From a virus (lineage: Duplodnaviria; Heunggongvirae; Uroviricota; Caudoviricetes), in the IMG/VR virus record IMGVR_UViG_3300009709_000002, positions 168,228-232,227 of that record: a stretch of 64,000 bases of DNA; one strand, written 5' to 3'. The translations under genes and the position numbers were made by a program. The notes under the pieces are model-generated. The model did not search any database. It was given only the letters and a program-made list of their open reading frames with translations, and was not told the origin of the DNA. Positions 352 to 62,678 of this stretch are shown here, piece by piece. Numbering within the stretch: position 1 is the first letter of the stretch; every line of letters starts with the position of its first letter.

Positions 352-369
352 TGTTATTCCTTATAGAGA

Positions 370-396
370 TAGAGGCGGGTATTTATTCCGCCTCTA
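370..396 (-). promoter_or_regulatory. Inverted repeat with late promoter ATAAATA in its loop, upstream of groES
   Basis: TAGAGGCGG-AATAAATAC-CCGCCTCTA on the minus strand. Confidence 0.65.
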
Positions 397-405
397 GACT
401 GAAAC

Positions 406-44491: not shown

Positions 44492-46009
44492 ATGACTCAA
44501 GGGATCGGTAAACATCTTGGTATGACGGTTGGCATTGTAAAGAATAATGCTGATCCAGGTCAGCATGGCCGTCTTCAGATTTACATTCCGTCTATTGATA
44601 GCGATAGCTTCCAGACGGCTGATTTGCCATGGGCGACATACGTTTCTCCATTTGGTGGTACAACCGCTAACGCTCAGGTCGGTAGAACTTCAGATGCTGT
44701 GGAAGGCGCGTCAGCTTATGGATTTTGGGCTATTCCTCAAAATGGAGCACAGGTGCTCGTCGGCTTCATTAATGGAAATCCAAAGATGCGTTTTTGGATT
44801 GGTTGCGTTTATATGCCTGAGCTTAATCGCACAATGCCGCAAGCTCTTGATGGTGTTAAAACAGAGATTGATGAATCAGGTCAATACCCTCAATCAAGCA
44901 TCTCATACATGGTTAACAACCTCAATGCGGCTGGATTAGGCCCAGGTTCAGCTAATTATGCAACGCGAGGTTGGGAACGTTCAATTTCTTATCCAGCTAA
45001 TGGAAATGCTGCTAAGAACACGAATAATGGGTATGCTCCAAAGCCGCTAGATAAATCCAAGTCAGAATCTCAGATGTTTTCAATGACGACGCCTGGCCGT
45101 CATTACTTCTTAATGTCTGATGTTGATGCTCAATGCCGTGTTCGTTTAAGAACAACCGCTGGTTCTCAAGTCATTTTTGATGACACAAATGAACGCATTT
45201 ACATCTCGACAGCTAAAGGCACTAACTACATTGAGATGGATGAGACGAATGGTAAGATCTATGTCTACTCTGATTCAAAGGTTAACGTCAGAGCAAAGAA
45301 TGACATTAACTTCTACTCCGATTCAAACATCAACATTGTTGCTAAGAAGCGCGTAAACATTCAATCTGAAACTCGTGGAGTGAAGATTCAATCGAATAAT
45401 ACGCTTCAACTAGTGTCTGGTGGAGGTGACGTTAACCTCAGCGCAGGCTGTGGCATCAACCTGAAGACGTCTGGCGGAAGTGCAGCTCCAGCCGTTGGTG
45501 CTTCAACAACTTCCAAGCCTGGTGGCGTAGGTCTACTTCGTGATTTTGCTGAGGCAGCTGGAACATCATCTGGCGGAATCAAGCTTGACGCAAATGGCCC
45601 GGTAGAGATTACAACGCAAAAAGCACTTACTGCGAACGCTCAGGCTGCTATCACGATGATGACATCTGGCACGTTAGCTTTCATCAGCAGCGCTGGTTCT
45701 ACACTTCAGCTTGGTGGTTCTACAACGATCTCAAGCCCAGCCGCTATGGGTATTAAGACACCAGCTTTCAATGTGGATGCTGGAAGCTTTGGTTTCGTAG
45801 CGATTGATCCTATCTCAGGGCCGCTGCCGATTCAATCGACGTCTGGAGTTTCTGTCAACAGCTCAAATACTCCATCTATTTCTTCTGCTCCTGCTGCATC
45901 TAGCGATACAATTTCGAGCTTCATGGTAAGGCCTGATCATGAATCTTGGAAGCGTGATGAAGATGAAGCCTTGTGCAAGACGCCAAGAAATCCACTTTGG
46001 CAGCCGTAA
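44492..46009 (+). CDS. 5: Baseplate spike (gp5/VgrG-like OB-fold plus beta-helix, no lysozyme domain seen)
   Basis: GIVKNNADP..HGRLQIYIP, LPWA, P..GAQVLV.F, repeated beta strands, C-terminal PDHESW.R. Confidence 0.8.
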   Translation: MTQGIGKHLGMTVGIVKNNADPGQHGRLQIYIPSIDSDSFQTADLPWATYVSPFGGTTANAQVGRTSDAVEGASAYGFWAIPQNGAQVLVGFINGNPKMRFWIGCVYMPELNRTMPQALDGVKTEIDESGQYPQSSISYMVNNLNAAGLGPGSANYATRGWERSISYPANGNAAKNTNNGYAPKPLDKSKSESQMFSMTTPGRHYFLMSDVDAQCRVRLRTTAGSQVIFDDTNERIYISTAKGTNYIEMDETNGKIYVYSDSKVNVRAKNDINFYSDSNINIVAKKRVNIQSETRGVKIQSNNTLQLVSGGGDVNLSAGCGINLKTSGGSAAPAVGASTTSKPGGVGLLRDFAEAAGTSSGGIKLDANGPVEITTQKALTANAQAAITMMTSGTLAFISSAGSTLQLGGSTTISSPAAMGIKTPAFNVDAGSFGFVAIDPISGPLPIQSTSGVSVNSSNTPSISSAPAASSDTISSFMVRPDHESWKRDEDEALCKTPRNPLWQP

Positions 46010-46030: not shown

Positions 46031-46402
46031 ATGAAAATTTTCTACCAAGGTTTTAGCACCAAGAGCTATGAAGCATCAGGCGGTGATTTCGTCACGCTTA
46101 ATCTTGATGCCATTGATGATGACTTGCTTAATCAAATCTTCACCGTTAAAGGTGAGCGAGTCAACATGCCCGATTGGGGCACAAGAATTCCGCTTCTAAC
46201 GTTTGAACTTAATGACGTGTATAGTCAGCAAGTTATCCGCGAAGATTTAACTAGCGTCTTCAATGCTGATCCTCGAGTAGAACTTGTAGCTCTCGACATC
46301 ATCACAGCAACTGATGATCACGGATTGATCGCTGCGTGCAAGATCAATTACATCGAGTTTCAAGTGACCAAAGATTTGAATATTGAAATTACCTCACAAT
46401 AA
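46031..46402 (+). CDS. 25: Baseplate wedge gp25-like
   Basis: DLLNQIFT.KGERV.MPDWGT, DPRV; late promoter 46018-46024. Confidence 0.88.
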   Translation: MKIFYQGFSTKSYEASGGDFVTLNLDAIDDDLLNQIFTVKGERVNMPDWGTRIPLLTFELNDVYSQQVIREDLTSVFNADPRVELVALDIITATDDHGLIAACKINYIEFQVTKDLNIEITSQ

Positions 46403-46414
46403 CAGGCTATTGTA

Positions 46415-49400
46415 ATGACATCAGCAACCTCGCTAAACGCGGCCGAAACCTGGGACCAAGTCTACCAAGCGTTTCAGCAAGTCAATTTCGTTTCATATGA
46501 CTACAATGCTGTCAAGCAGTCTCTTCTGGATTATCTGAAGTTCTACTATCCAGAAAACTTCAATGACTATATTGAATCTTCACAGCTAATTGCGATCATC
46601 GAAACGTTTGCTTACATCGCCGAACAGCACGCGTATCGTATTGACATGTCGATCCATGAAAATATGATCGACACTGCCGCCCGTAAGCAAAGCATCTTGC
46701 GTCTGGCTAAGCTGGTCTCATATACTGCAACTCGTAATATCCCGCTGCGTGGTTTTGTCAAGATCACCAGCGTTAGTTCGTCACAAGTGCTTTATGACTC
46801 GCAGAATAACGCACTTTCGAACAAGACGATTAACTGGAATGATCCAAACAACGCGCTTTGGAAAGAGCAGTTTATGGTCATCATGAACGCTGCAATGACT
46901 CAGCCATTTGGCTCACCATTTAAGTCATTCCAGATCGATGACACCGTTTTTCAACAGTATGAATTTCAGAATGTACTGGAAAGTGATTCAGCGAGCACTT
47001 CATTCACAAATGGTTGTCTGCCAGTAAAAACGACGATCGCTGGCTCAACCGTGCTATTTGAGCTTGTTCCAGCCGATGTAGACTCGGACACAGTGTTTGA
47101 ACGTACGCCATCCCTTAGCGAATACTTCACCATGCTGTATGCTGATGATGGTTTTGGCGATGGTTCCATGACGACCGGCTTCTTGATGTACATCAAGCAA
47201 GGCACAATGAACCGTGTTCCATATATCTTCACGGTGCCAATTCCTAATCAGTCAGTGAACATTACGTTGAACAACATCAATGATGCTGACGTTTGGGTAC
47301 AGGAAGTTGACGCTACAGGAACTCTTATCAATGAGTGGCAAGCGGTTGACACGGTTGCTGGACAGAATCTTCAGTTCAATGTTAATGCCAACTTGAACCA
47401 GTATGAGATTGAATCCCTTGAAGATGACCAGATTCGTCTGATCTTTGGTGACGGTGACTTCTCCAACATTCCAACTGGTTACTTCAACTTCTGGGTTCGT
47501 CAGTCTACCAGCGGTTCATTGGTACTTCAGCAGAGCCAGATGACCAACCAGACAGTTACGTTTGCTTATACATCTTCTCTTGGAAACACAGAAAGCATAA
47601 CGCTGACGTACTCACTGACAGCAGCTCTTCAAAACTCATCAGAGTCTGAAGACATTGAGCACATTCGAACAGCAGCTCCAGCTACGTACTACTCGCAAAA
47701 CCGCATGGTGAATGGTCAGGATTACAACTCATTCGTGCTAAAGGATCCATCGATTCTTCGCGTAATGGCTGTAAACCGAACGTTTGCTGGTCAGCCAAAG
47801 TATATCAACTGGAATGATGCTTCAGGTACATATCAGAACGTGAAGATCTTTGGTAACGATCTGCGCATGTACTATGACATTAGCTCAACCGTGACGACAG
47901 AATCGCTTTCATCGCGCGTTCTTATCGACCAAGTGCTTGAGCCTATGCTTAGCGATCCAGGTGTCTACAACATGCTGGCCTACGCTTACAATCAGTCAGC
48001 TGCTCCATTGAACCTTGCTTATGTTCGTCCAAGAACAACATTCATTGAAGATTCTACAATCGGTATCCAAGAGAAGACAGCAATTCAAGGTGCGCTCGAC
48101 CGCCACTGGTACGGTGAACCAGACACGATCGTTTACTTGGCGTCGGACTACACGACGACTAACACAGCAACGCTTCCAAGCAAGTATTACGCCGTCGTAA
48201 ACTCTGACACTGACCACTTGATCTATGATATGAACCTTCCATTGGTTCTGCAAAATACGACAAATGGTACTTATGCTCCGCTCAATATCACGCCGAATAA
48301 CGTGTCTGGCATCCAGAACACTGTCATGCGTCAGCTGCAGTTTGGTATTGGTTTCAATCCTATCAGAGCATTCCAGACGACTGGTATTTACATCAACAGC
48401 GGGTCTGTAACTACAATCAACTCAGCAGATTCAATTGCCAACTCAAGCATCAATCAAAGCACGGCAATCAATGAAATTCTAACGGTTGAAATTACAGATA
48501 GCGATGGTACATTCACCGTGTATAGTAGCGTCAATGGTTACTATGGTAGCGGAACGATTGGCCAGATCTACACAAATGGTAAGATCTCCTTCATCATCGG
48601 TTCGCCATCAGGCGTAACACCAAGCGAGTATGTTACCGGCGATGCATTCATCATCACGATCTCAAACGCTGGTGGTGTTTACAACGCGACAAATATCGCT
48701 AGAGCAAACCTGGTTGGTCTGTTCACGATCATCCCTGAATCACAGATCACCAGCACCACGATCACCGATCCATACAACCCGGCAGATCCTGTAGACAATT
48801 GGATCATCATGGTTGAACGTGTAGATGATAGCAGCGGTAACTTGCTGTACTGGATCGTTACGCAGCGCAATTTTGAGCTTGTAGTTGAAAGCCCGACTAC
48901 TAACTTCTGGTTCGATAACAGCACGACGATCGTTGATCCAGACACGCTGCTTCCTGTAGTTGATCAGGTTAGAATCTTGAAGTCAAACTTGAACGTAACG
49001 GGATTGCAAGCAATCGGAACTGACCAGATCTACAATGTTGCGGGTAAGGTGAACTATGACAATGGCGACGTAAACATCAACGCGCTGCAGGTTACGGCTA
49101 ATGATGCTCAAGGCACCAACACGGACGGTCAAGGTCTGCTAGCAAATCCTTACCAGTTCTTGAATTTCATCGGACCAAATGATTATGTCTACTTCACGAC
49201 CGACACAACTACTGGCAATTTGGTTCCAGTCGTTGCCACCGCTTACATTGAAGGACTGACATACACTGACAACGTTTCAGGCATCTACACGAGAAAGCCT
49301 GGCCGTGATATGCTTGACTTCATGTGGCAGCACTTTACGGCAAGCGATAGTTTGATTGATCCATCACCTTCAAACATCGTTGACATGTACGTGCTGACTC

Positions 49401-49924
49401 GTGGTTACTACTCGCAGATGCAAAACTACGTGAACGGCGTGCTTTCTGCTCCTCCGACAGCTCCAACATCGCTGGATCTTCGCACAACGTATGCATCGCT
49501 GATCGAGAGCAAGATGCTTTCAGACACGGTTGTAATGCACTCGGCTAACATTAAGATGTTGTTCGGTAACCAAGCTGACCCTCAGCTTCAAGCTACCTTC
49601 AAGATCGTGAAATCTGCTAGCTCGTCATTGACAGATGACCAAGTTCGTATTCAAGCGCTTGATGTAATTCAAAACTACTTCACGGTTGATAAGTGGACAT
49701 TTGGTCAGACGTTTTATGCAACCGATCTGTGCTCGCAGATCCACCAGACGTTTGGTTCTGACGTAGCATCTGTTGTACTGGTGCCAAACTTCCCGAACAA
49801 CTACTTCGGTGATTTGTACACGATCACGGCTGGTTCGGATGAGGTCTTTATTAGCTGCGCTCAATTGAGCAACGTGCAGATCATTCAGGATCTTAACAGC
49901 ACTACTCTGAAGCAAAAGTCGTAA
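46415..49924 (+). CDS. 6: Baseplate wedge gp6-like
   Basis: YPENFNDYIESS, TAARKQSILRLAKLVSY, FGDG.F..IP, AP.TYYSQNRMV..QDY. Confidence 0.88.
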   Translation: MTSATSLNAAETWDQVYQAFQQVNFVSYDYNAVKQSLLDYLKFYYPENFNDYIESSQLIAIIETFAYIAEQHAYRIDMSIHENMIDTAARKQSILRLAKLVSYTATRNIPLRGFVKITSVSSSQVLYDSQNNALSNKTINWNDPNNALWKEQFMVIMNAAMTQPFGSPFKSFQIDDTVFQQYEFQNVLESDSASTSFTNGCLPVKTTIAGSTVLFELVPADVDSDTVFERTPSLSEYFTMLYADDGFGDGSMTTGFLMYIKQGTMNRVPYIFTVPIPNQSVNITLNNINDADVWVQEVDATGTLINEWQAVDTVAGQNLQFNVNANLNQYEIESLEDDQIRLIFGDGDFSNIPTGYFNFWVRQSTSGSLVLQQSQMTNQTVTFAYTSSLGNTESITLTYSLTAALQNSSESEDIEHIRTAAPATYYSQNRMVNGQDYNSFVLKDPSILRVMAVNRTFAGQPKYINWNDASGTYQNVKIFGNDLRMYYDISSTVTTESLSSRVLIDQVLEPMLSDPGVYNMLAYAYNQSAAPLNLAYVRPRTTFIEDSTIGIQEKTAIQGALDRHWYGEPDTIVYLASDYTTTNTATLPSKYYAVVNSDTDHLIYDMNLPLVLQNTTNGTYAPLNITPNNVSGIQNTVMRQLQFGIGFNPIRAFQTTGIYINSGSVTTINSADSIANSSINQSTAINEILTVEITDSDGTFTVYSSVNGYYGSGTIGQIYTNGKISFIIGSPSGVTPSEYVTGDAFIITISNAGGVYNATNIARANLVGLFTIIPESQITSTTITDPYNPADPVDNWIIMVERVDDSSGNLLYWIVTQRNFELVVESPTTNFWFDNSTTIVDPDTLLPVVDQVRILKSNLNVTGLQAIGTDQIYNVAGKVNYDNGDVNINALQVTANDAQGTNTDGQGLLANPYQFLNFIGPNDYVYFTTDTTTGNLVPVVATAYIEGLTYTDNVSGIYTRKPGRDMLDFMWQHFTASDSLIDPSPSNIVDMYVLTRGYYSQMQNYVNGVLSAPPTAPTSLDLRTTYASLIESKMLSDTVVMHSANIKMLFGNQADPQLQATFKIVKSASSSLTDDQVRIQALDVIQNYFTVDKWTFGQTFYATDLCSQIHQTFGSDVASVVLVPNFPNNYFGDLYTITAGSDEVFISCAQLSNVQIIQDLNSTTLKQKS

Positions 49925-49944: not shown

Positions 49945-49979
49945 TATCGCTAGACTATGGAATAAATAGTCTAGCGATA
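49945..49979 (+). promoter_or_regulatory. 14-bp perfect inverted repeat with late promoter in loop
   Basis: TATCGCTAGACTAT-GGAATAA-ATAGTCTAGCGATA; ATAAATA at 49962-49968. Confidence 0.7.
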
Positions 49980-50008: not shown

Positions 50009-53000
50009 ATGGCTGACTTACAGAAAAAATCAATAGATCTTTCGACACTTCTCCCAAAGCGTTATCGTGATAAGACGATTAACACGTTGATGAGAAATGT
50101 CTTTAACAAACAACTAACCAAGAATGAATCGCAGCCGCTCTTTGGTTATGTTGGCGATCAATCGGTCGCAGCAGCTGGTGACATCTATATTCAAGAGCCA
50201 ACTGCAGAACGCCAGATCAATCAGCTTACTCCATTAGTTTATTCACAGCAAGCAACCGTAGAAAATGTCTGGGGCTGGCAAGACCTGCTTCAAAAGCTTG
50301 TAATCTCTGGTGTCGACTACGACACGATCAGCAATTGGTGTAATTCGACGAGCTTTAACTTTGCTCCGCCAATTGACTTGGACAAATTTTGTAACTTCAA
50401 TGAATATCTGTGGATCGGCAACTGGATCTTGAATAGTCCAGGTCTGCCGTATGAGACGCTAGGTATCCCGGTTGCTGCAGTGCAAGCTGCTCTTGCACGC
50501 TCCAACCCAACAGCTATCGCAGAATACTACGTCATTGGACGTGGCACGCTTGACTCAAATGGAAATCCTGTTGCTCCAATTCCAACGTTGACCTCATGGT
50601 CAGATTGGGCATTGTGCAACCTGTGGGTTCACCGTGAAGATGTGATCAGCTTCTACAACAACTTTTCTGGCGTTATCAGCTTCACAGAGATTTCGCAGGC
50701 TACTCGTCCAATCATCGAGTACACTAGCACGATCAAGCTCAACACGTTCGTGAACTCAAGCGGCGCACCAGCTGACGCAGGAACCGCTGGCGGTGTGGTC
50801 AAGAATCGCACGAACCAACCTCCGATGTTTGACCTGTACTACAATGATGGTACGCATACGAACACAGCTTCATCTACTTTCTACTACGTAGAAAGTTCTA
50901 CAGCGCCGGTTGACACGGTCATCGGTCGACGCCTTCTCATTGATACGCTTGATGAGTTCACTTTCGGTCATTCGTTGCAAAATCCAACGACTGGCGAAAT
51001 GCTGTACTACAAGGTTTATGAGAACAACGCGTTCCAGCTGCAGACAATTTGGCAAGCTGGTCCTGAAATGTCGACTAGCTACGTGCAGTATGACCAAACC
51101 GGCAATATGTTGAATGCTGATAAGATCAACAATTTTGCCAACTACTACTGGACGGGAGCTTCTGTTTCTCCGTCGAATCTACCGTCATACAACCAAGCTG
51201 GTAATCCTGAGTACTACGTTATTGACGTAAGTGGTACTAGCGATTGGGCAAAGTACAATTTCTGGGTTCACGTTTCTACGCTAAAGCGTTCTGACTTGAA
51301 GTTCTACATTCAAGCTACGCAACCGATCATTGAGCTTAATGCTCTGTTCGAAGCGTCGTTGCTTGAGCAAAAATCTTCTTTCAACCAGATTCCGCTGGTG
51401 CAGAAGTATGTCTACGATCAGACGACTGTGGGATACGCGCCTATTCCAGACTCAAACTATCCAACGCTGAATGACACCTACTTAGGTGGTGTGATTCTGG
51501 CTCGAGTAGCAGATCTTGGACCGCTCGCAGATGTCATCAACAACACGAGTGAAATTCAATCTCAGTGCCTGACGATTAATGATGAAGTCTATATTCAAGG
51601 TTTGCTGAGCGGATACTACAGCTTCAGCGTAGACGGTCAACCGCTGCCCTTCGCTCCGGTAGCTCCGTCATTCACGGGCACTGGAAATGGCACAGCTTCC
51701 TCATTCGTTACGAACACAGCGACACTAGCTCCACAGGTTCTGACTCTAACAGCAACATCAGCTACTACATTCAGCGTAGAAAGCACCGTTTTGACGAACC
51801 TGCCAGAGTTGACGGTTAATGAAACTTATACAGGCATCAACGGACTCACGTTTGTTGTGCTTGACGGTACTATTCCGTTTGAGGTTGGTGATGCTTTCGC
51901 TATTCCATTCAAGACCACGCTTTATACGAGTGGAAATCTGTATGCGAAACAGCAAGAAGTTTACAAGACCTGCACGCTAGCAACTGACATTCTTTCATCA
52001 GCAACTTCACAAGTCATCGTTCCAGCAGACGTTACGCTGAAGAATGGTTGCTGGGAAGTTCCACCGCAGTTCATGTGGAACGTCGTCAATGAGACTCGTG
52101 CTCAGGTTGGCCAAGGTGATTTGTTCAATCACTTTGCATCGATCATTCAAGATCAGGCTGGTCTCATCGGTGAATATGCTGGTTCAAACAACTGGCGTCA
52201 ACTTACCAACAAGAATTACGGTCTTGGCGGTACTATCAAGCAATTTGATGGTCGTTTTAGCTTGCTTATCGGCATGCTGCTTCAAGAAAATATCACCGTC
52301 AACTCATTGGTAGATTTCGCTCAGCAGAATTATGAGCAGATGCTTGCTCAGATCACGTCATATGCCGAAAACATTCTGCCAGGCTTGATCGCGACCGGAA
52401 CAGTGGTTCTTCCAAATGGAACAGACGATATCGATCCAAACATCGTTAGCGCGTTCAAGAAGTACTATCAAGCAACTACCACGCTTCCAGCCGCTAACAC
52501 AAACACGACTCTTGATGCCAACATCGCAGAGCTGTTTTATGACACGACTTCAGCGATCTCAAATGTAGTTGTTACGCTGCCGTATCTTGGCCTGCTGCCT
52601 GCAGTACAGCCTTCCAAGTCGTTTGACGGCAATTTGAACATGAATGTCATCGTTCACCATGACGGCCATGAAACTCAGATTCAAAGCGTCAATACTGATC
52701 TTCTGAAGCGTATCGTTCAAAAGTCATTCATCCGCTCGAACGGCCAGCAAACTCCAGGTATCATTGGAGGTTTGACCTACCCGTCACACCCGTTTGCAGG
52801 TCAGTACTGGTATGACACTACGACGAATCAGCTATTCTTCTATGATGTAGTGTCGGACACCGGTGAGCTTCCAGCAACTGCACCATATGGCGGCTATTCA
52901 TACAACCGTCAGACCAATGAACTCTGGCAGTTCAATGGTGCTGTGTGGACGAACGTTGGTAGCCAAGTTATCGTGCTGGCAGATCCATGGACAAATGTTC

Positions 53001-56000
53001 CTATCGACCAGGTCATCAATAACCTGACGTTGGCGATCGAGCAAGAGCTGTATGAGAATTGCCCGCCACGTAACATTGTGCTGGATACTACAGCTCTTCA
53101 ACAGAATCCTGATTACACGACCTTCATGCAAAGTGCATTTGAAAGCTTTGGTGTGAAGCACAATGTCACGGATGTTTACGGAAGCTCATTTGACCAGACA
53201 AATCCATTCACGTGGAATTATTCACAAGCTTCCATCAACGGAGTTCCATCTGGAACGGCTACTTGGCAAGGTATCTACAAAGCGTTCTATGGTACTTCAC
53301 GCCCAGATTTGAATCCATGGCTGCTGTGTGGTTACTCGACTGAAGCTGCTTTCTTGGACGCTCTCATTCTGAATGGAATTATTCCAGCTGGAACAACCAC
53401 GTTCACGACTTCAATGTGGCCAGCAGTCTCTACCTTTGTTCTCACGATCAGACAGAATGCAGGTCAAACTACAGCTGTAAGCGTCAATCAAGCAACCGGT
53501 GCACTTCTCCCACCATACGGAACGACTACACAAAACTTGACGCACGTCGTGCCAACTGGTATCGCTAATCGTTATGTCTTTGGTCAAAACGGTCCTATCG
53601 AGATGGTGTGGAAGACCACGACAGATTATCTCTACGGCCAAGTCAAGACATATTTCCAACTTGACCCGATGGGCTTCGTGGATAAGACATGGGGCGATGC
53701 AACCACCACGGTAGATGGTTACTCGATCGACAAGTATCTTGGCCGTAAGCTCGCGCCAAGCGATATCGTGCTACACGGAACTTTGCTGAATTCTGTTAGC
53801 TCACAATCATGGGTGACGTATGAAGCTATGTCGCTTCCAGAATACCCAATGACGTATACGTCTGAGGTCGTCAGCCGCATTGATGGTATCATCAAGCTTA
53901 CTGGAACAAACTTCACGACTCCGGTGTTTGTTAACATTGCAAATGGTTACCAAGATGCCTTCATTAAGATCACCTACACGCCGAATCGTATCGGCTTCAA
54001 CTGGGGTGATACTTACACGGCGGTGATTGATACGTTTGCTGCGATTACTACATCATACGTTCCACAGTCATACTACTACTCGGAAGGCTTCAATCAGCTG
54101 TTCGTGCAGTACATGCGCTCTTACAGCAGCGACATCGTCATTTCGACAGATACGGCTTACTTGAAAGATTGGTCGATTAAGCTTGGCTATCGCTTCGGCG
54201 GATTGATTAACTCTGATGTGCTGTCGATGACGATTGACGGTGCAGCGATCGCGACAAAGAATTATACCGTCTTCCTGAAAGAAAATAAGTTCACAAGCAG
54301 CAATTGGTTGAATGCTCTTCGTGTTCAACTTGTTCAGCGTGGTACGTCAAAGAATGTCAATGGTAGCCAAGTTCCTGCGAAAGGAGCTGCTGGTACTCAG
54401 CCTGGTGATGACTGGGTCTACCGTATCGATACTTACAATCCTAACCGCACTGAACTATCGTGGTACACGTATGATACGTCAGGCGCTAGCTATGAATTCA
54501 TGGCGCAAGGCGGAACAGTTACGACTGATGAATGGACTCGTTATCAAGTTGTGGCAAACACGATGACGTTCAAGGCTCCGTTCTTGGTGACAGGTCTGCA
54601 AAACTTGATCACTTTCCTGTTTGGCTACGCTGATTATCTTGCTGCTCAAGGTTGGTTGTTCAATGATCCTAACAATCAGCTGCTGAATTCAGCTGGACAG
54701 CCGCTTGGTTGGACCACTACTATTGAGGCGTTCATTAGCCAACAGTATGAAGGCGCGACCGCTGGCTCAGCCGTTAACTTGAATCCATTCTCACAAAATG
54801 TTTGGTTCCAGACAGAGACTGGGGTTGTTTCAAACCTGACCGGCAGAATTGGTCTGGAAACAGAAGCGATTCCAGCTATTCTCGACGTGAATAGTCAACA
54901 GATTCCGTCTTCAGAAATGCGTGTATTCCGTGATGAAGCTCTTACACAGATCGTGTTTGATACGCCTCCTTACATTATCCACTTGCTGACCAGTGAATAT
55001 GAGAATGTGGTTGCATTTGATCAATATGGTGCAGATGATGTGCTGATCTATGATCCATTCCTTGGCCAGATCATCAGCCGATTCTTCTTGACAGGTCAAC
55101 GTCAGCTTAATTTCAATGGTCGCCTTTCATATGGTGGACAGTATTTGTCTGATGGGCAGATGCGCCAAAACATGGAGGCAGCCGTTGAAAAGATTCTAAC
55201 GTTGTATGACACTGATTTGATGGTGACTAACGCACCTGAAACTGCGCACGCTCGCGGGTTGCTTGGTTACCAAGCTCCATCATACTTCACGCAACGCGGA
55301 TCAAGCGATATGACAGCATTCCGCTTCTGGCAAGGTATGATCTCTAACAAGGGAACAAACCTGTCGGTTGATGCGTACATCAATTCTTCCAAGTTCAAGA
55401 CTTATGAAATTGATGAATACTGGGCTTACAAGGTTGCAACGTATGGTGACGCAAACGGAATCGTCAAGACTGAAATCAAAGTTCAGCCAGATGATTTCAC
55501 GTCTGAGCTTACTAACTATCTGATCATTGAATCAGATGAGGTAGCTAATGCTACGGCGTATGAAAATGGAACTGCAACCACGATTTATGCAGCTTCGACA
55601 TCATACAACATGACTGCACCATACACTGGTGGTGGATCAATTCCGATCATGCCAACGGATGAAACAAGATGGTTCAGCTATGAAGACGTAGGCACGCTTC
55701 CATACTTTGAAGCACGCTTGATGAATGAAATCACGATCATTCCAGACTCACTTGACAAGATTTATGAGCTGAGAGATTCTAGAGGAAATCTGATTCGTGC
55801 AGATGCAATTGAAATTGTTGCGAATGACGGAACAAACTATGAGATTGGAAATTACGTGCCAGCGCCTACACCTACGCCGACACCAACCCCAACTCCTACA
55901 CCAACCCCGACGCCTGCTCCAACTCCAACCCCGACGGTTGCTATTCGTCCGGCTTGGTATAACGAGCTGGCTGGCTCACAATCTTTGTTCTACCCGATTG

Positions 56001-57112
56001 TGATCAATGGAGTGACGTACACGGTTCCGCCTACAGGTCCAAATTCAACTACACCATGGTCGCTGACACCGGTGCCTATCAACACGCCTGGTGATACGTA
56101 CTCATTGTTGAATTTGGCGGTTGTTGATTCTAACACGCTTACTGTTGAAGCAACCCAACCATCGTCTTGGACCCTGACAAATGCTCCGCCGTATTCAGCG
56201 ACGTTTACTCCAGCTCAGCTTCCGTACACTTCAGTGTACGCTGACACAGAGATGACGATTGACATGACGAATGGATCTGGCGCAGTTACGATCACCGGTA
56301 CTTATGCAGATAGCTCTACGATTACAGGCGTCATTAACTTGACGACGAGCTACACGCCAACACCGACGCCAACCCCGACTCCTACGCCAACCCCGACTCC
56401 TACGCCAACCCCGACTCCTACGCCGGTGTATTCATACAATTTTGTGCATCCGAACACCACGGTAATCACGGTTGTTCCCCCTGGCACAGGAACAGGCTCT
56501 AGCTCACCGGCAGCTCCAAGCTTCCAAGCTACTGACAGCACAGGCTTCAACAATATTGCTCAATATCCTGGTGGTTCCACGAGTGTTGGTTGGAATCCAG
56601 CGTATGTAATTGCTGGCAACCCAATCACAATCCCATCTGGTTCTGCTGCTGATCCAGATACGTTGTGGGGAACTATCACGCAAGAATATCCAGCGGGGGC
56701 AACGGCTTTTGCTAACGTGATCAACTACAATATTGGTGGATTCACTGGAACTATCACTGTAAATGCTGTGGTGAATAGAGCTTTCACTAATGTTAGCGAT
56801 GCGATCTCATGGTATCAGTCTGAAGGTTGGACAACGGATATTGATAGTTTCTGGGCAGAACAAACATCTCAGCTTAAATCCGCTGGCGTTTATACTGGCA
56901 CGAACCAATGTATGTGTATGCCACTATTTGGTAGCTTCAACGTACAGTTCAATGATAATGGATCATATCCGGTGACTGGAATGGGTGCTAGCAACACTGC
57001 AACAAATGTTTCACTTTGGGGAATGAACAATGACGTCTACCAAGGCGGAAATCAATACACGACTTGGATTACAGCTCCATCTGTTCTCATCGAGCGAGTT
57101 CAAACCAACTAA
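50009..57112 (+). CDS. Giant baseplate-associated structural protein (2367 aa) ending in two PT-linked modules
   Basis: Follows gp6; ERQINQL.P, F.PPIDLDKF.NF..Y.W, FWQGMI..KGT, EYWAYKVA.YG. Confidence 0.75.
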   Translation: MADLQKKSIDLSTLLPKRYRDKTINTLMRNVFNKQLTKNESQPLFGYVGDQSVAAAGDIYIQEPTAERQINQLTPLVYSQQATVENVWGWQDLLQKLVISGVDYDTISNWCNSTSFNFAPPIDLDKFCNFNEYLWIGNWILNSPGLPYETLGIPVAAVQAALARSNPTAIAEYYVIGRGTLDSNGNPVAPIPTLTSWSDWALCNLWVHREDVISFYNNFSGVISFTEISQATRPIIEYTSTIKLNTFVNSSGAPADAGTAGGVVKNRTNQPPMFDLYYNDGTHTNTASSTFYYVESSTAPVDTVIGRRLLIDTLDEFTFGHSLQNPTTGEMLYYKVYENNAFQLQTIWQAGPEMSTSYVQYDQTGNMLNADKINNFANYYWTGASVSPSNLPSYNQAGNPEYYVIDVSGTSDWAKYNFWVHVSTLKRSDLKFYIQATQPIIELNALFEASLLEQKSSFNQIPLVQKYVYDQTTVGYAPIPDSNYPTLNDTYLGGVILARVADLGPLADVINNTSEIQSQCLTINDEVYIQGLLSGYYSFSVDGQPLPFAPVAPSFTGTGNGTASSFVTNTATLAPQVLTLTATSATTFSVESTVLTNLPELTVNETYTGINGLTFVVLDGTIPFEVGDAFAIPFKTTLYTSGNLYAKQQEVYKTCTLATDILSSATSQVIVPADVTLKNGCWEVPPQFMWNVVNETRAQVGQGDLFNHFASIIQDQAGLIGEYAGSNNWRQLTNKNYGLGGTIKQFDGRFSLLIGMLLQENITVNSLVDFAQQNYEQMLAQITSYAENILPGLIATGTVVLPNGTDDIDPNIVSAFKKYYQATTTLPAANTNTTLDANIAELFYDTTSAISNVVVTLPYLGLLPAVQPSKSFDGNLNMNVIVHHDGHETQIQSVNTDLLKRIVQKSFIRSNGQQTPGIIGGLTYPSHPFAGQYWYDTTTNQLFFYDVVSDTGELPATAPYGGYSYNRQTNELWQFNGAVWTNVGSQVIVLADPWTNVPIDQVINNLTLAIEQELYENCPPRNIVLDTTALQQNPDYTTFMQSAFESFGVKHNVTDVYGSSFDQTNPFTWNYSQASINGVPSGTATWQGIYKAFYGTSRPDLNPWLLCGYSTEAAFLDALILNGIIPAGTTTFTTSMWPAVSTFVLTIRQNAGQTTAVSVNQATGALLPPYGTTTQNLTHVVPTGIANRYVFGQNGPIEMVWKTTTDYLYGQVKTYFQLDPMGFVDKTWGDATTTVDGYSIDKYLGRKLAPSDIVLHGTLLNSVSSQSWVTYEAMSLPEYPMTYTSEVVSRIDGIIKLTGTNFTTPVFVNIANGYQDAFIKITYTPNRIGFNWGDTYTAVIDTFAAITTSYVPQSYYYSEGFNQLFVQYMRSYSSDIVISTDTAYLKDWSIKLGYRFGGLINSDVLSMTIDGAAIATKNYTVFLKENKFTSSNWLNALRVQLVQRGTSKNVNGSQVPAKGAAGTQPGDDWVYRIDTYNPNRTELSWYTYDTSGASYEFMAQGGTVTTDEWTRYQVVANTMTFKAPFLVTGLQNLITFLFGYADYLAAQGWLFNDPNNQLLNSAGQPLGWTTTIEAFISQQYEGATAGSAVNLNPFSQNVWFQTETGVVSNLTGRIGLETEAIPAILDVNSQQIPSSEMRVFRDEALTQIVFDTPPYIIHLLTSEYENVVAFDQYGADDVLIYDPFLGQIISRFFLTGQRQLNFNGRLSYGGQYLSDGQMRQNMEAAVEKILTLYDTDLMVTNAPETAHARGLLGYQAPSYFTQRGSSDMTAFRFWQGMISNKGTNLSVDAYINSSKFKTYEIDEYWAYKVATYGDANGIVKTEIKVQPDDFTSELTNYLIIESDEVANATAYENGTATTIYAASTSYNMTAPYTGGGSIPIMPTDETRWFSYEDVGTLPYFEARLMNEITIIPDSLDKIYELRDSRGNLIRADAIEIVANDGTNYEIGNYVPAPTPTPTPTPTPTPTPTPAPTPTPTVAIRPAWYNELAGSQSLFYPIVINGVTYTVPPTGPNSTTPWSLTPVPINTPGDTYSLLNLAVVDSNTLTVEATQPSSWTLTNAPPYSATFTPAQLPYTSVYADTEMTIDMTNGSGAVTITGTYADSSTITGVINLTTSYTPTPTPTPTPTPTPTPTPTPTPTPVYSYNFVHPNTTVITVVPPGTGTGSSSPAAPSFQATDSTGFNNIAQYPGGSTSVGWNPAYVIAGNPITIPSGSAADPDTLWGTITQEYPAGATAFANVINYNIGGFTGTITVNAVVNRAFTNVSDAISWYQSEGWTTDIDSFWAEQTSQLKSAGVYTGTNQCMCMPLFGSFNVQFNDNGSYPVTGMGASNTATNVSLWGMNNDVYQGGNQYTTWITAPSVLIERVQTN
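55859..55935 (+). repeat. Pro-Thr linker 1
   Basis: PAP(TP)n with degenerate codons. Confidence 0.9.
56354..56425 (+). repeat. Pro-Thr linker 2 with three perfect 18-nt repeats
   Basis: ACGCCAACCCCGACTCCT x3 at 56366-56419. Confidence 0.9.
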
Positions 57113-57122
57113 AAGGTCAAAA

Positions 57123-57201
57123 GTTCCGCTGAGGCTGGCAGGATAAATATTGTTTTGATAGAGGAGAAGGTTCACTTCTCCTCTTCTAACAATTGCGGAA
57201 C
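57123..57201 (+). promoter_or_regulatory. Nested hairpin with internal late promoter, ending just before the next start codon
   Basis: GTTCCGC/GCGGAAC, ATTGTT/AACAAT, AGAGGAGAAG/CTTCTCCTCT; ATAAATA at 57143-57149. Confidence 0.7.
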
Positions 57202-57203
57202 AT

Positions 57204-60056
57204 ATGACAGATACGACAATTCCTGGTGTAGATGGTTCATTCAGTGATCCAGGCTTCAAAAAGCTTAACGCATCTACCATCCAGCTCACCAATCCTAATT
57301 TTGTAGGTCAGGCGATCAAAGTTCGCTGTTATGGTCCTGCTGCCAATGTGTATAGCCCGGTCAAGATGTATAACTACGTTGATAACACGCAGGTTATCAA
57401 CAATGCTATACTGTGGGATCCTGCTCGTGGAATCCACCATCCGGAAGCAGTTCAGATCGTTGATGTCAAAACTGCCCGTGACCCAGCTCATTACAACGCA
57501 CGCCTAGATGCAGCCGGGACAAACACCGATGATCCTACGCGAGTCTGGGGTTTAGATCAAGTTGGTAAGGTGTGGTGGAACACTGCCAATCTAGACTGGA
57601 AGCCTTATTACGATGTTCAGCTCATGCCTAGCGTGTTTGACAGAACAGCACTTTGGGGTGCTTTAGCTGACTATTCATCAGTTGAACTTTATGAGTGGAT
57701 CAAATCTCCGGTTGCACCAGCTAACTACATTGGAAGTGCCCTAAATCTTGCAGACAATAGCGTTCCAGCATTCGTAAACACCGTTAGTAGAACTCGCACT
57801 TGGTACATTCGTCCTATTGCGTGGCGATTCTCAACGAGCCCGATGTCTACGCCAAGAACATTCCTGGCATCATCGCCAGCTAACTTGTATTTGAGTGAAA
57901 CAGCAGTTGGTCCGGCTACAGCAACGCTTCTAACTGGGCGGCTGTCAAGCTACGGTCTAGCAACTGGCTCAAAGTTCTCTCTTGCTTCATATAGCTCAAC
58001 GTCAAAAACAGATGCAACCTGCAACAATGTAACAGGTTTAGCTGTTGCGACGAGTGATGAAAATTTCTTAGCAGGTTCATCAACAAGCTACACTGCGCCA
58101 GCTCTGCACCCTTCTGCCTACTTCTCAAACATGGCTGTCACCGTGTATGACAATGCCACGTTTAGCGGTAATGCAAGCAATTTTGGCGCGATCAAATTCA
58201 ACAATGTAGTAGATTCAAACCAGATCACCTGGATCATCGTAACATGCCCAAATAGCGGTGTGACTTCCAAAGTTCAAGTCACAGCAAGCAGCTTTACCAC
58301 CGGCACTCAAGTCTCTTACAAGTTTCCTGAACTTGGCATAATGATTGCGGGTACCGCACTACAAGGATCGAATGATACTTGGGCAAATGCAGGCACTCTT
58401 ACACCATCACAGCTTATTGAGCAACTTTCGGCTATCTTCGGTAGCCCATTGCATGATGTTGTCATGCGTTCAACCATCGATGTCAATATTCTGGCTCAAT
58501 TTTATGATGCTGGAACACATGCGGTTGTTCAAGAGCTTGAAGATGCTAACAGCGATTCTCTCATTGGCAATCCATTACAGGCCACAAGCGTTTATAACGG
58601 CTGGGTTGCCTGGAATGATCCAACAAACTTGTCATCCGATCCATATGCGCCTTACAATCAATGGCAGCCCCTGATCGGTGCGTATGTTAACGCAACTGAT
58701 TCGCTTCCAATGCTTTCGGATGCGATCACTGCAGACATCAACACGCCATTCACTACAAGAGCTGGGACCATTATCAACCAGTTTCAAGAGATCTGGAGCA
58801 ATTGGACGTCATTGGATATGACGACGACTTCAGCTCGCTACTACCAGTCACCAGTTCCATTTTCACTTTCTGTGAATGACGTAACGGTGACTAATGGAGT
58901 TGCTTATCCAACGACTCCAACGTTCAATGGCCCAGTTAACTTCTTCGTAGCTAACTTCTCATTCCCGCTGTCACTGTCAGCGCAGGCGGCTAACGCTTCG
59001 GTATTCGTGAATGGTTACAAGATCACTTCAGCTAATTGGAATATTGTAACGTCTGGTCAGACTATCTTCTTTAACGTTACCAACGTCAATACCGGCGACT
59101 TGATCACAATTCAGATTCCTGGCTACCAACCTACATCTGCACAGCTTGCCTATGATCCAACAGCAGAAGATGCTGATCCATTAGTGCTTACGCAATATGC
59201 GATCGATTATCCGCATGTTGTTGAAAGTGTACGATCGGTTCTTGGAAACCAAACTACTTCAGTTTACTACTTCTGGGTAAAAGGTAAGTGCTCATTGGCG
59301 AACGCTAACAAGAGCATGTCGATCAACCAAGCTGCTAGCCTGCTAGCCACGAACACAGATGTCTATTCAATTCTTCAGATCATGAAGTACTATGATCAAT
59401 TGAATGCTCGCCCAAATCGTTACAGCATGCTTACTGTAAAGGGTCTTGAGCAATACGTTCGACAGACAGACACTTACAAGCTTCGTGTAACGACAGATGA
59501 AGCAGTACGAAACACCGACAAGAATATGACCTTGAAGAACGTTCACACAGAGTGGAAACTTCTTCGTGCAAAGCAATCAACGGTCATTCCAAAGAATCTT
59601 TGGGACTTGCTGACTGATTCTGTTTGTGGTCAAAATGCTATTGGTCAACCAATTCCATCACAGCTTTACCAAGCGTATGATGACAGAAACGGAACTTCGA
59701 CTCGTTATGGTTTCAACACTGGCCAAATCCTAGTTGATAGCTCAATCGCGATCAACACGATTACCTACACGATTCAGAATACGACGATCAATAAATATGA
59801 TAGCAACTATAATGCAACGCCGGATTACATCTCATATCCAGGCTTTGATATGTCGCAGTTGAGCACATACTTTGCTACTCCAGCTAGCTCTCGTCAATTC
59901 TTGACAAATGTTTGGCTTAACGCGACTCCTCGACAGATCAATGAAATCTTCTTTGCAGTACTAGAAGATGCTCTTACGGTGAATTATGAAGTTACCGACT
60001 TCTTCAAGACATCCATGATCGCAATGCAAGAAGTCCAAATCGTAAACGGGAGCTAA
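57204..60056 (+). CDS. Baseplate structural protein, probable C-terminal part of the giant protein
   Basis: WDPARG, DPA.YN, W...QVGKVWW, YEW, YYFWVK, HTEWKLLR, FFKTS. Confidence 0.75.
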   Translation: MTDTTIPGVDGSFSDPGFKKLNASTIQLTNPNFVGQAIKVRCYGPAANVYSPVKMYNYVDNTQVINNAILWDPARGIHHPEAVQIVDVKTARDPAHYNARLDAAGTNTDDPTRVWGLDQVGKVWWNTANLDWKPYYDVQLMPSVFDRTALWGALADYSSVELYEWIKSPVAPANYIGSALNLADNSVPAFVNTVSRTRTWYIRPIAWRFSTSPMSTPRTFLASSPANLYLSETAVGPATATLLTGRLSSYGLATGSKFSLASYSSTSKTDATCNNVTGLAVATSDENFLAGSSTSYTAPALHPSAYFSNMAVTVYDNATFSGNASNFGAIKFNNVVDSNQITWIIVTCPNSGVTSKVQVTASSFTTGTQVSYKFPELGIMIAGTALQGSNDTWANAGTLTPSQLIEQLSAIFGSPLHDVVMRSTIDVNILAQFYDAGTHAVVQELEDANSDSLIGNPLQATSVYNGWVAWNDPTNLSSDPYAPYNQWQPLIGAYVNATDSLPMLSDAITADINTPFTTRAGTIINQFQEIWSNWTSLDMTTTSARYYQSPVPFSLSVNDVTVTNGVAYPTTPTFNGPVNFFVANFSFPLSLSAQAANASVFVNGYKITSANWNIVTSGQTIFFNVTNVNTGDLITIQIPGYQPTSAQLAYDPTAEDADPLVLTQYAIDYPHVVESVRSVLGNQTTSVYYFWVKGKCSLANANKSMSINQAASLLATNTDVYSILQIMKYYDQLNARPNRYSMLTVKGLEQYVRQTDTYKLRVTTDEAVRNTDKNMTLKNVHTEWKLLRAKQSTVIPKNLWDLLTDSVCGQNAIGQPIPSQLYQAYDDRNGTSTRYGFNTGQILVDSSIAINTITYTIQNTTINKYDSNYNATPDYISYPGFDMSQLSTYFATPASSRQFLTNVWLNATPRQINEIFFAVLEDALTVNYEVTDFFKTSMIAMQEVQIVNGS

Positions 60057-60059
60057 CAA

Positions 60060-62678
60060 GTGGCAGTAGTAAACAACGACACGCAGCTATTAGAATCACT
60101 GTCGGCCTACATCAATGACGTAAAGCCATACCACTCTAAGCTCATTCAGATGACCACGACGCTTCAGTTCACTGACGCGTTCACAGCTTCATGCGCTGAT
60201 AATCTTAGCACAAACATCTACCTTCAAAACATCTGGACAAGAGATGACACTGTTGGTGGATGGCGTATGTATAACTTCTCAGGCGGCACGCAGAATGACG
60301 CTACCTACGTTATTCCAGCTACAGTCTATCCACGCTTCTCGATAAATGACTCACTGAATTCAAATCAAATGCCGCTCGGTACAGACCCAGCCACCGTTGA
60401 TTTGACAGACGCAAACAATGACGGCATTCCTGACAGTGAAGAGCCATGGTCAGGATTGCCTGGCTATGCTTCTCACCAGCTTGGATCGAACACGATTCCA
60501 GTATCAGCTCCTGTTGTTAGCGTTTCACGTGTTATTACCGGCGTAGAGCAAGAACCAGGTGGAACTGGCACATTCTTTGACGGTGGTTGGTTCCTAGATG
60601 GATCTCATACCTTCAATTCAACCGCAGCAAGCAATTATCTTGACGGAACGTGGACGCTTGACGGATCCAAGACTCTCAACCCTACAATCTATCCGTGTAC
60701 AATTCAGTATGACTTGGCTTTGGTTGTAGAAGGTGTTGCAGAAACCTTCGCATTTGGTGATGTTGTTCCACAGATCACAATCAACGGAAGTATCTTCACT
60801 GGTTCGATTATTGCTCTTTCAGCAACTTCATTCTTGTTGAAAGATGCGCATTTGGTTGCGCCAATTGCGCCATACACTATCTCAGCTGCTGATACTGACG
60901 TTTTCTCAAATCTACAAGCTGCTCTCAATTCTGGTGCTAATGTACTTCCAATGATAGGATCGTACATCAACTACATCACTCCGGCGCCAGCGGTAAGCAC
61001 AGTTTACGTTCAAACCGGTCGTTATGCAGTTCCGTTCCACCAAGGTTCACGCGTTCGAGTGAACGGTGAATACATGGATTTTGGTATTGAGTATGTAGTT
61101 GATCACACTCGTGGCTTCATTCAGTTTATGCCTGGTAGATTCCCGGCGCCAACTGATCACGTTGACATCAATTACTTCATCAGTGATAAGCTGTTTTTCA
61201 AGTACACCACGCCATTCGCAGCAAGTACAAGTTCTAGTAATCCGAGAGATTCATTCACGATCACACTTGATTCGACTCAAGCTCTTGGTTACACTGTTGC
61301 GTTCAACAATGCAGACGGAAATACTGGCAAGGGCGTTCTCAATGACATCATTATTCCGGTTGCAGCAGATGGCACGGTCTTCACGATTACCGCATTAACA
61401 CCGCTGTATTTCCAAGTTCAACAAACAGCGCCTGTCATGGGACCAATTACTTACGCAACGTTCGGTGTGCCATATTCGGCAAACCAAATGACGACAGGCG
61501 TAAGCAACTACATTGATGGTACTTGGAAGCTTAATGGTGCAAGAAGCCTGAATGCCTTCCCTTCACTTCTTGCATTCACGATTGACGGATCTTGGATTGA
61601 TTACTACCTGACGCAGGACGGCAACAATTATGACTCATTCACGCTAAATCTGCCCTTCTTCACGCAGATTAGCGCGCCGATTGACGCCACGGATTACTTG
61701 CCAGACCTGAGCATCCAAACTGAACGCGGCTACATCACCGAGCAATATGACCCGGCTGCTGCACTTCACGATGGTATGCAATTCTCGACGTTTGGTCAAG
61801 TTCTCATGCAAGAGACGACCGTTCCAACTGGCCAACAGCTGGAATACACGTTCGTATTCAACTCTATTCCTCCGCTGAACACCTACATTGAATTTAGAGT
61901 AGAACAAGCTGGCCAATACAATCAGATCGCTAACGCATCTTTCGATGAACGCATTGAGTTCAAAGAACTCATTCGTCTTTACGATTGTATGTGCGCTACG
62001 TCGATGAACGTAACTGGTGAGTGGTACACTACACAGATCAACTTGGACAATGCTCCGTGGGCAGCTACTAACGCGTCGATGTATCCAGCTCTGCCACAAG
62101 CTGTGATTACGCAACCTACTCCACCAACACCGCAGATTCCAAGATTGCCAGGCATCTACAAGATGCGACTGTTTGATCCGGTATGCTTCGATAACTCGAA
62201 CACCGGATATGAAGCGTTCCCGTATGACACAGATCGCTACGAGACGGATGATTGCTCTGGCGTTGCAACTGATCAAGCTGGAAACAATGTCTTCACGTAC
62301 ATTTCAGATGACTTCTACCTGACTGTCACAGAAGGTGGTGCTAACACTGTGATTCACAATGTTATGCTCCACCCAGAAGCTAACTTCTATGAAGAACCAG
62401 AGCAAGTCAATAATCTGTACATTCACTATGCTGGTCAGTACATCATTGATAGCGTGGTGGTGCTTAATGGTGACCAAGTAATCACGCCAGATACTTTGGT
62501 TGTAGGAACTCACGTGGTTCAAGTAAGCTTCAACACCGCTCGTTCATTCAGCGTTTGGATTGAAGCAGATACCACCACATTGAATCCGCCAGAAGGTGAT
62601 TACACTGAGCAATTCTATGATGGTTCCTTCAATTATGATGGCACCCGCGCATTTGAAGAATACAACCCAGCGCCTTAA
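60060..62678 (+). CDS. Baseplate/tail structural protein with DG.W.LDG repeats
   Basis: YINDVKPYHSKL start; four aromatic-DG repeats. Confidence 0.7.
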   Translation: MAVVNNDTQLLESLSAYINDVKPYHSKLIQMTTTLQFTDAFTASCADNLSTNIYLQNIWTRDDTVGGWRMYNFSGGTQNDATYVIPATVYPRFSINDSLNSNQMPLGTDPATVDLTDANNDGIPDSEEPWSGLPGYASHQLGSNTIPVSAPVVSVSRVITGVEQEPGGTGTFFDGGWFLDGSHTFNSTAASNYLDGTWTLDGSKTLNPTIYPCTIQYDLALVVEGVAETFAFGDVVPQITINGSIFTGSIIALSATSFLLKDAHLVAPIAPYTISAADTDVFSNLQAALNSGANVLPMIGSYINYITPAPAVSTVYVQTGRYAVPFHQGSRVRVNGEYMDFGIEYVVDHTRGFIQFMPGRFPAPTDHVDINYFISDKLFFKYTTPFAASTSSSNPRDSFTITLDSTQALGYTVAFNNADGNTGKGVLNDIIIPVAADGTVFTITALTPLYFQVQQTAPVMGPITYATFGVPYSANQMTTGVSNYIDGTWKLNGARSLNAFPSLLAFTIDGSWIDYYLTQDGNNYDSFTLNLPFFTQISAPIDATDYLPDLSIQTERGYITEQYDPAAALHDGMQFSTFGQVLMQETTVPTGQQLEYTFVFNSIPPLNTYIEFRVEQAGQYNQIANASFDERIEFKELIRLYDCMCATSMNVTGEWYTTQINLDNAPWAATNASMYPALPQAVITQPTPPTPQIPRLPGIYKMRLFDPVCFDNSNTGYEAFPYDTDRYETDDCSGVATDQAGNNVFTYISDDFYLTVTEGGANTVIHNVMLHPEANFYEEPEQVNNLYIHYAGQYIIDSVVVLNGDQVITPDTLVVGTHVVQVSFNTARSFSVWIEADTTTLNPPEGDYTEQFYDGSFNYDGTRAFEEYNPAP

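Follow-up and report, generated by a model that had tools for sequence, protein, structure and literature searches.

Probable fission of a giant baseplate-region gene in a jumbo phage, followed by C-terminal capture of a two-module cassette

Introduction

Gene fission and fusion, together with exchange of C-terminal modules, are known for the tail-fibre and baseplate proteins of phages, and immunoglobulin (Ig)-like decoration or adhesion domains occur on phage virion proteins. Translational bypass of phage T4 gene 60 and self-splicing introns in phage genes are known as well. Here we describe a giant virion protein gene that is present as two adjacent open reading frames (ORFs), A and B, in a 64,000-nucleotide (nt) stretch of phage DNA (the window; positions 168,228 to 232,227 of IMG/VR record IMGVR_UViG_3300009709_000002). 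The record is 360,227 bp long with direct terminal repeats, and its source is an uncultivated jumbo phage. The pair very probably arose by ordinary gene fission in a variable linker, after which the window lineage captured a cassette of C-terminal modules at the end of ORF A.

The closest described relatives are the giant proteins of Rak2-like phages, XacN1 and RsoM2USA, which are represented by phrog_10938, a profile of 3324 positions annotated as "virion structural protein". In the RsoM2USA report, ORF361 is listed as "Structural protein" (2541 amino acids, aa) and is named among the bands obtained from purified virions by sodium dodecyl sulphate-polyacrylamide gel electrophoresis (PMC8504454), and the XacN1 structural genes are treated in PMC5852040. 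A literature search, which was not exhaustive, found no description of this family, of the split site or of the cassette.

Results

ORFs A and B correspond to consecutive parts of one giant protein

Both ORFs lie on the plus strand of the window. ORF A (50009-57112) encodes 2367 aa and ends with a TAA stop codon at 57110-57112, while ORF B (57204-60056), with its ATG at 57204 (MTDTTIPGVDGSF...), encodes 950 aa. Both matched phrog_10938: the ORF A core (residues 1-1951, 50009-55861) with an E value of 3.8e-92 and its best stretch at profile positions 1138-1609, and ORF B with an E value of 5e-16 at positions 1816-1937, downstream of the stretch matched by ORF A. The two ORFs thus match consecutive parts of one profile. 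They do not form one continuous ORF of the phrog_10938 type, because the stop codon and a 91-nt spacer intervene and ORF B is in another frame. From these matches, the ORF A core is predicted to make up the N-terminal two thirds of a giant virion structural protein of the Rak2/XacN1/RsoM2USA type, and ORF B the C-terminal third of the ancestral protein, now a separate gene. By their likeness to RsoM2USA ORF361, both products are putative virion components.

Single ORFs spanning both A and B were found in Ralstonia phage RsoM2USA (ORF361, 2540 aa), in Xanthomonas phage XacN1 (ORF325, 3313 aa), and on IMG/VR contig L004 (3793 aa). Residues 1801-1943 of ORF A aligned with residues 1553-1669 of RsoM2USA ORF361, and residues 21-175 of ORF B aligned with residues 1682-1834 of the same protein (42% identity), so that the break falls in an unconserved stretch of 12 residues. 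A search with ORF A residues 1450-1951 against 5.8 billion proteins gave 133 matches, of which 120 were listed, and the end of the ORF A core and the start of ORF B were mapped by BLASTP onto each of these 120. Both lay within one protein of 2500-3900 aa in 118 cases; the C-terminus of ORF B was also present in 110 of the 118 and absent from the other eight. The remaining two listed homologues, P0156 (1954 aa) and P0157 (1955 aa), end where the ORF A core ends.

The nearest fused relative, P0158, is a protein of 2894 aa with 57-60% identity, on which the end of ORF A maps at about residue 1951 and the start of ORF B at about residue 1965, the halves being collinear with the fused protein. Measured against the window, the distance between the mapped A end and B start in the listed homologues spanned -76 to +264 residues, and the fission site is therefore a length-variable linker. 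Some of the fused homologues (P0159, P0163, P0171, P0173 and P0254-P0274) carry inserts of 130-260 aa at this linker. It is a predicted insertion hot spot of the family. A megablast search of 54800-58300 against phage records gave no match, and a metagenome scan with ORF B found no relative.

The nearest relatives share the split site and lack the cassette

The first-pass annotation of the window had proposed that a PT-linked cassette (PT, proline/threonine) had split the gene, and had suggested that orthologues be aligned to see whether they are one ORF. They are one ORF in the distant relatives, i.e., in 118 of the 120 listed homologues, but not in the closest ones. IMG/VR contig L003 carries a 1953-aa ORF ending ...HYETGVFTPPASS (TGVFTPPASS), followed by a 90-nt spacer and a 950-aa ORF that is 61% identical to ORF B of the window, with no cassette. 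P0156 and P0157 have stand-alone counterparts of ORF B in P0277 (950 aa) and P0278 (929 aa), respectively. A cassette-free split at this site is an outcome that the first-pass annotation itself had named as refuting its proposal. For the P0156/P0277 and P0157/P0278 pairs the split without cassette was seen at the protein level, and adjacency of the halves was taken from the sizes of their longest contigs, which are equal within each pair (28,930 nt for P0156 and P0277; 42,761 nt for P0157 and P0278). In a search for ORF B proteins of similar length, stand-alone forms were found only in the window's own cluster, in P0277, in P0278, and in one fragment from a 3.9-kb contig. All four split lineages keep long intact ORFs, at 57-70% identity, and the cassette-free ones end in short Pro-rich tails (TPPASS, TPPTSGA and LIPSS).

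We constructed a maximum-likelihood tree of the ORF A core from ten sequences: the four split forms together with P0158 and five more of the highest-listed fused relatives. The remaining 112 listed homologues were not included. Its topology was (P0158 fused, ((window, P0157) 100/99, (L003, P0156) 100/100) 100/99). The four split forms therefore make up one clade with a support of 100/99, in which the cassette-free P0157 is the sister of the window. This topology implies a single fission in the common ancestor of the four split forms and a single later gain of the cassette on the window branch, and the most parsimonious reading is that fission would have come first and the cassette later. As in other cases of gene fission, the fused outgroups are collinear with the halves, and the split is kept in sister lineages with both halves intact.

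It is improbable that the cassette itself caused the split, by a single insertion of cassette, stop codon and spacer into the fused gene with later precise deletion of the cassette in the relatives. The cassette does start exactly where the homology of ORF A to its relatives ends, and the Pro-rich tails of the cassette-free forms could be remnants of its linker. However, this history needs one gain and two independent in-frame losses (one in P0157 and one in L003/P0156), as against one fission and one gain, and the spacer is common to, and conserved in, relatives that have no cassette. In addition, the cassette was found in none of the 120 listed homologues of the giant protein.

The cassette is shared with other phage virion proteins

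After ...YEIGNYVP, ORF A switches to a PT linker (PAPTPTPT...; 55859-55936), a first module of about 138 aa (55937-56353), a second PT linker (56354-56425), and a second module of 228 aa with the TAA stop codon (56426-57112). A six-frame scan of the 360-kb genome showed that these two linkers are its only PT runs. We searched with the cassette exhaustively, using HMMER, against 1.84 billion representative proteins, which gave 264 matches at E <= 0.001. Among the best 150 of these, all but five aligned to the PT linker region only, so that the cassette tip is rare (about five related clusters).

The whole linker-module 1-linker-module 2 unit forms the C-terminus (residues 586-967) of P0006, a protein of 967 aa, with 41% identity and an E value of 3.7e-56, and both P0006 and ORF A end in ...VLIERVQTN. 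The body of P0006 belongs to phrog_3430, a "virion structural protein" family (E value 7.7e-174) distinct from phrog_10938, and has no counterpart in the window's genome. P0013 (747 aa) contains two tandem copies of module 1 and then module 2, indicating that the modules duplicate as well as shuffle, and module 1 occurs alone in P0014, P0071 and P0119. The contigs that carry these relatives are up to 133,866 nt long for the P0006 cluster and 326,938 nt for P0013. Because the same unit ends the unrelated body of P0006 and its modules recur in the four other proteins, the cassette is a unit that has been shuffled among the C-termini of phage virion proteins. A metagenome scan with a three-sequence alignment of the cassette found no relative, a scan of viral contigs with P0006 gave no match, and the ESM Atlas contained no match to the cassette.

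An AlphaFold model of the cassette, made from a six-row alignment, had a mean predicted local distance difference test (pLDDT) score of 67.5. Module 1 was modeled confidently as a beta-sandwich (pLDDT mostly 71-94 over residues 1-138), and module 2 as a mixed alpha/beta structure with lower confidence. The fold matches of module 1 were generically Ig-like, with a best Z score of 6.2 and Foldseek E values of at least 0.03 against PDB and 5.4e-3 against BFVD; the best were to Ig-like domains of Rib, S-layer, intimin, adhesin and phage-fibre proteins, at Z scores of 5-6.2, which is a non-specific range. No Pfam Ig family matched module 1. For module 2 there was no Pfam (E up to 1) or PHROG family, no clear fold match (Foldseek against PDB and BFVD, VIA-align wide) and no PDB sequence match. 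Going by fold class and position, the cassette is predicted to be a surface-exposed binding, adhesin or decoration tip. An intein was considered and rejected: the cassette ends in a stop codon, and there was no Pfam family in ORF A (E up to 0.01) or module 2 (E up to 1).

The spacer is conserved and carries a promoter-like motif

The spacer between ORFs A and B (57113-57203, plus strand) is homologous to the 90-nt spacer of L003 (8160-8249). Two of its elements are conserved in L003: the motif ATAAATA (57143-57149), 61 nt ahead of the ORF B start codon, and a 10-bp hairpin with a 5-nt loop (57160-57184, AGAGGAGAAG / CTTCTCCTCT), in which one A-T pair has become G-C in L003 by a compensatory change. 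From ATAAATA to the ATG, 54 of 65 positions (83%) are identical to L003, compared with 411 of 600 and 403 of 600 (67-68%) in the coding DNA on either side, and with 16 of 32 (50%) between the stop codon and the motif. The predicted fold of the spacer has an energy of -34.7 kcal/mol (z score -4.35). There is no second copy of the spacer in the genome and therefore no sign of a mobile regulatory cassette.

ATAAATA resembles the T4 late promoter, TATAAATA. It occurs 108 times in the genome, and for 75 of these copies a crudely called ORF begins in the same sense within the next 120 nt, compared with 7.6 expected, an enrichment of about tenfold. The median distance from motif to start codon is 36 nt; before ORF A the motif is at -47. 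With this enrichment, the conservation from motif to ATG above that of coding DNA, and the compensatory change in the hairpin, the spacer looks regulatory, and ATAAATA is a plausible promoter of ORF B. The hairpin may terminate or attenuate transcription of ORF A, form a stem in the 5'-untranslated region of the ORF B message, or do both. ORFs A and B are in different frames and the in-frame spacer of L003 is rich in stop codons, so that readthrough cannot fuse the genes.

Other examples of ATAAATA in the window are at about 360-400 (minus strand) and at 49950-49975 (plus strand), besides the copy at 57143-57149. In many spacers the motif stands between short inverted repeats, i.e., in a potential hairpin loop (e.g., GAGGCGG-AATAAATA-CCCGCCTC). 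A perfect hairpin of at least 7 bp within 25 nt after the motif was found for 10 of the 108 copies.

A guided joining of the two halves finds little in its favor

The first-pass annotation had further proposed that an unpaired hairpin loop in the spacer, GCTGGCAGGA (57134-57143), is complementary to both junctions and could guide a splice, a ribosome jump or a recombination that joins ...NYVP to GVDGSF.... A minority of transcripts, ribosomes or genomes would then skip 55862-57224 with the help of the loop and restore a protein of about 2894 aa, which, considered by itself, has hardly any likelihood. The sequence details of the proposal (GTG CCA at 55856-61, ATT CCT at 57219-24, TGCCAGC at 55857-63, TCCTG at 57221-25) and the complementarities of 7 and 5 nt are all present, the join would be in frame, and the nearest fused relative, P0158, has the size expected from it. 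Whether the loop is unpaired depends on the prediction used: part of GCTGGCAGGA is paired in the minimum-energy fold, and only in the centroid structure is it mostly open.

The supposed guide itself is not conserved. It abuts ATAAATA in the least conserved segment of the spacer, where L003 has the GTTAGGAGAA region instead, and L003 lacks an equivalent of the outer stem TTCCGC...GCGGAA that would close the loop. The stretches complementary to the two junctions share 2 nt of the loop, so that both pairings cannot form at once. The chance of such complementarity was estimated from 5000 dinucleotide-preserving shuffles of the spacer per setting, scored for a 7-mer complementary to the 5' junction with a nearby 5-mer complementary to the 3' junction. 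When any position in the unconserved linker was allowed for the junctions, as had in effect been the case for the first-pass annotation, 25% of shuffles equaled the observed complementarity.

There were no matches to introns or other RNA families in Rfam (E up to 1; 55600-57500, both strands), and no repeats or target duplications at the junctions of the 1363-nt interval except the PT repeats. The relatives that are split at the same site have no cassette to remove, and their spacers are rich in stop codons. Finally, the 1363 nt that would be skipped encode a conserved two-domain unit with homologues elsewhere, and we know of no recoding or splicing system whose intervening sequence resembles such a unit. 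We consider a guided splice, bypass or site-specific deletion, producing a protein of about 2900 aa beside the cassette-tipped form, to be extremely unlikely. A self-splicing group I or group II intron was rejected, there being no Rfam match and the interval being an in-frame continuation of ORF A. In the four DNA runs that were used, no contig bridged directly from about 55860 to about 57222; since rare variants are lost from contigs, this demonstrates the unjoined form only. The joints that do occur in the contigs of these runs lie only between or within PT repeats.

The architecture recurs in independent strains

Contigs from soil metagenomes of two other studies, diverged from the window by about 8%, have the same arrangement, continuing from the A core through the cassette as far as the spacer or into ORF B. 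Record 9 of X2 covers 54500-57459 overall (54500-56451 and 56519-57459), record 21 of X3 covers 55663-57206, and X4 contributes shorter pieces, including 57022-57275. The architecture is therefore no assembly artefact and is stable in a group of strains.

The stop codon and spacer might otherwise have been an assembly or sequencing error, or A and B the remains of a dying pseudogene. The record was assembled from a metagenome, PT repeats are hard to assemble, and the contigs of the source run break inside PT linker 2, at 56395, an assembly weak point. However, the same split is present in four lineages with long intact ORFs, the cassette architecture is bridged by contigs of the other studies, and the regulatory part of the spacer is more conserved than coding DNA. 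Artefact or decay is accordingly an explanation to which we assign almost no weight.

In the contigs of the four DNA runs there were 574 strain differences. The length of PT linker 2 is polymorphic, strains differing in it by insertions of 6-nt units (CCAACC or CCAACG). In the X2 strain, a patch of 67 nt at the start of module 2 (56451-56519) is equal in size to that of the window and too diverged to align, its flanks being about 92% identical; it lies in or beside a loop region of the model with low confidence (cassette residues 178-223). A diversity-generating retroelement was rejected as the source of this patch: there was no template repeat or second DNA copy of the cassette, and no RVT_1 match, in the 360-kb genome.

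Neighboring genes

Upstream of ORF A are a gp5-like hub gene (44492-46009; Phage_base_V, E value 4.7e-13), a small ORF at the position of the small wedge gene (46031-46402), and a gp6-like baseplate wedge gene (46415-49924; phrog_10646, baseplate wedge subunit, E value 1.1e-244). ORF A lies directly 3' of these hub, small wedge and gp6-like wedge genes, as in relatives with a phrog_10938-type protein. Directly 3' of ORF B is an ORF of 872 aa (60060-62678, plus strand) with no Pfam or PHROG match; at the corresponding position RsoM2USA has an ORF of 395 aa and then the tail sheath gene.

Discussion

The split itself, its phylogenetic distribution, the homology of the spacers and the modular sharing of the cassette are direct observations, and together they favor what the first-pass annotation had named as the simpler alternative, a simple fission of the gene accompanied by a new late promoter: ATAAATA, which in most of its copies stands upstream of ORFs, is present in the spacer. 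The ancestral state would have been one giant gene of about 2500-3900 aa, encoding a virion protein of the baseplate region in Rak2/XacN1/RsoM2USA-like jumbo phages. In a small clade comprising the window phage, L003, and the phages encoding P0156 and P0157, this gene would have broken in its poorly conserved, length-variable linker to give gene A (about 1953 aa) and gene B (about 930-950 aa). The halves would have been separated by a spacer of about 90 nt that provides the promoter-like ATAAATA, the conserved hairpin and a new ATG. Later, and in the window lineage only, the free C-terminus of A would have been extended in frame by the PT-linked cassette, which consists of an Ig-like module and a 228-aa module with no recognizable fold and recurs as a unit at other phage virion protein C-termini. 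On this model A and B would be produced as separate polypeptides that continue to assemble together in the baseplate, and ATAAATA would drive ORF B, while the hairpin would end or attenuate A transcripts, stabilize the B message, or do both. There is no indication of splicing or ribosome jumping, and the idea of an RNA-guided, bypass or recombination event is without support.

Several points weigh against the model of fission followed by capture. The order of events is a matter of parsimony, two events against three, among four split lineages, and in two of these, those of P0156 and P0157, the spacer and the adjacency of the halves are deduced from protein sizes and equal contig sizes, not from DNA. 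The two separate polypeptides are themselves deduced rather than seen. The motif before ORF B, at -61 and 5' of the hairpin, is beyond the usual range of -20 to -50 (48 of 75 cases), and a scan for generic sigma-70 promoters and terminators found nothing at the spacer and no terminator at the hairpin. Lastly, when the junctions were held within windows of +-6, +-10 and +-15 nt, just 0.2%, 0.6% and 2.3% of the shuffles reached the complementarity of the proposed guide.

The findings have little import beyond this phage group. Within it, they provide a clean, datable case in which a giant baseplate-region gene would have undergone fission and then gained a shuffled module at the newly formed C-terminus. 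They also mark the length-variable linker of the family as a site that tolerates breaks and insertions, point to an uncharacterized cassette of two modules that is a candidate tip for host binding or decoration, and eliminate an attractive hypothesis of recoding or RNA guidance. Fission may, in addition, have exposed a new C-terminus at the periphery of the baseplate that became a docking point for the rare, shuffled adhesin tip; we put this forward tentatively, the balance tilting somewhat against it. If it were so, host recognition in the window phage would run through what was formerly an internal linker.

How does this locus compare with known systems? Its likeness to T4 gene 60 and to the introns of phage genes is superficial: a coding sequence is interrupted, a hairpin is present, and an in-frame join is arithmetically possible. 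Bypass of the gene 60 type involves matching take-off and landing codons, a stop codon directly after take-off, a non-coding gap of about 50 nt and a take-off hairpin. Here, by contrast, the codons are CCA and CCT, the codon after the putative take-off site is GCG rather than a stop, and the gap is 1363 nt long and encodes a conserved protein unit of 414 aa with a stop codon of its own, and we reject such a bypass for this locus. The Ig-like domains of phage virion proteins are another parallel, since module 1 is likewise a predicted beta-sandwich, although it has no Pfam Ig match and its fold scores are non-specific.

The giant protein of Rak2-like phages, XacN1 and RsoM2USA is alike in sequence family and in its place 3' of the gp6-like wedge gene. 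There it is in one piece, whereas here it is in two, the first of which carries a foreign C-terminal cassette at a formerly internal linker. XacN1 ORF325 (L002) has linker-joined small modules too, its last 330 or so residues being Pro/Thr/Ser-rich linkers between small, Cys-containing repeated modules, but these are at the extreme C-terminus of the fused protein. The course of events proposed here would follow that known from phage tail-fibre and baseplate genes: a variable linker breaks, the downstream half acquires a start codon and promoter of its own, and a linker-joined C-terminal module that unrelated virion proteins also carry is captured.

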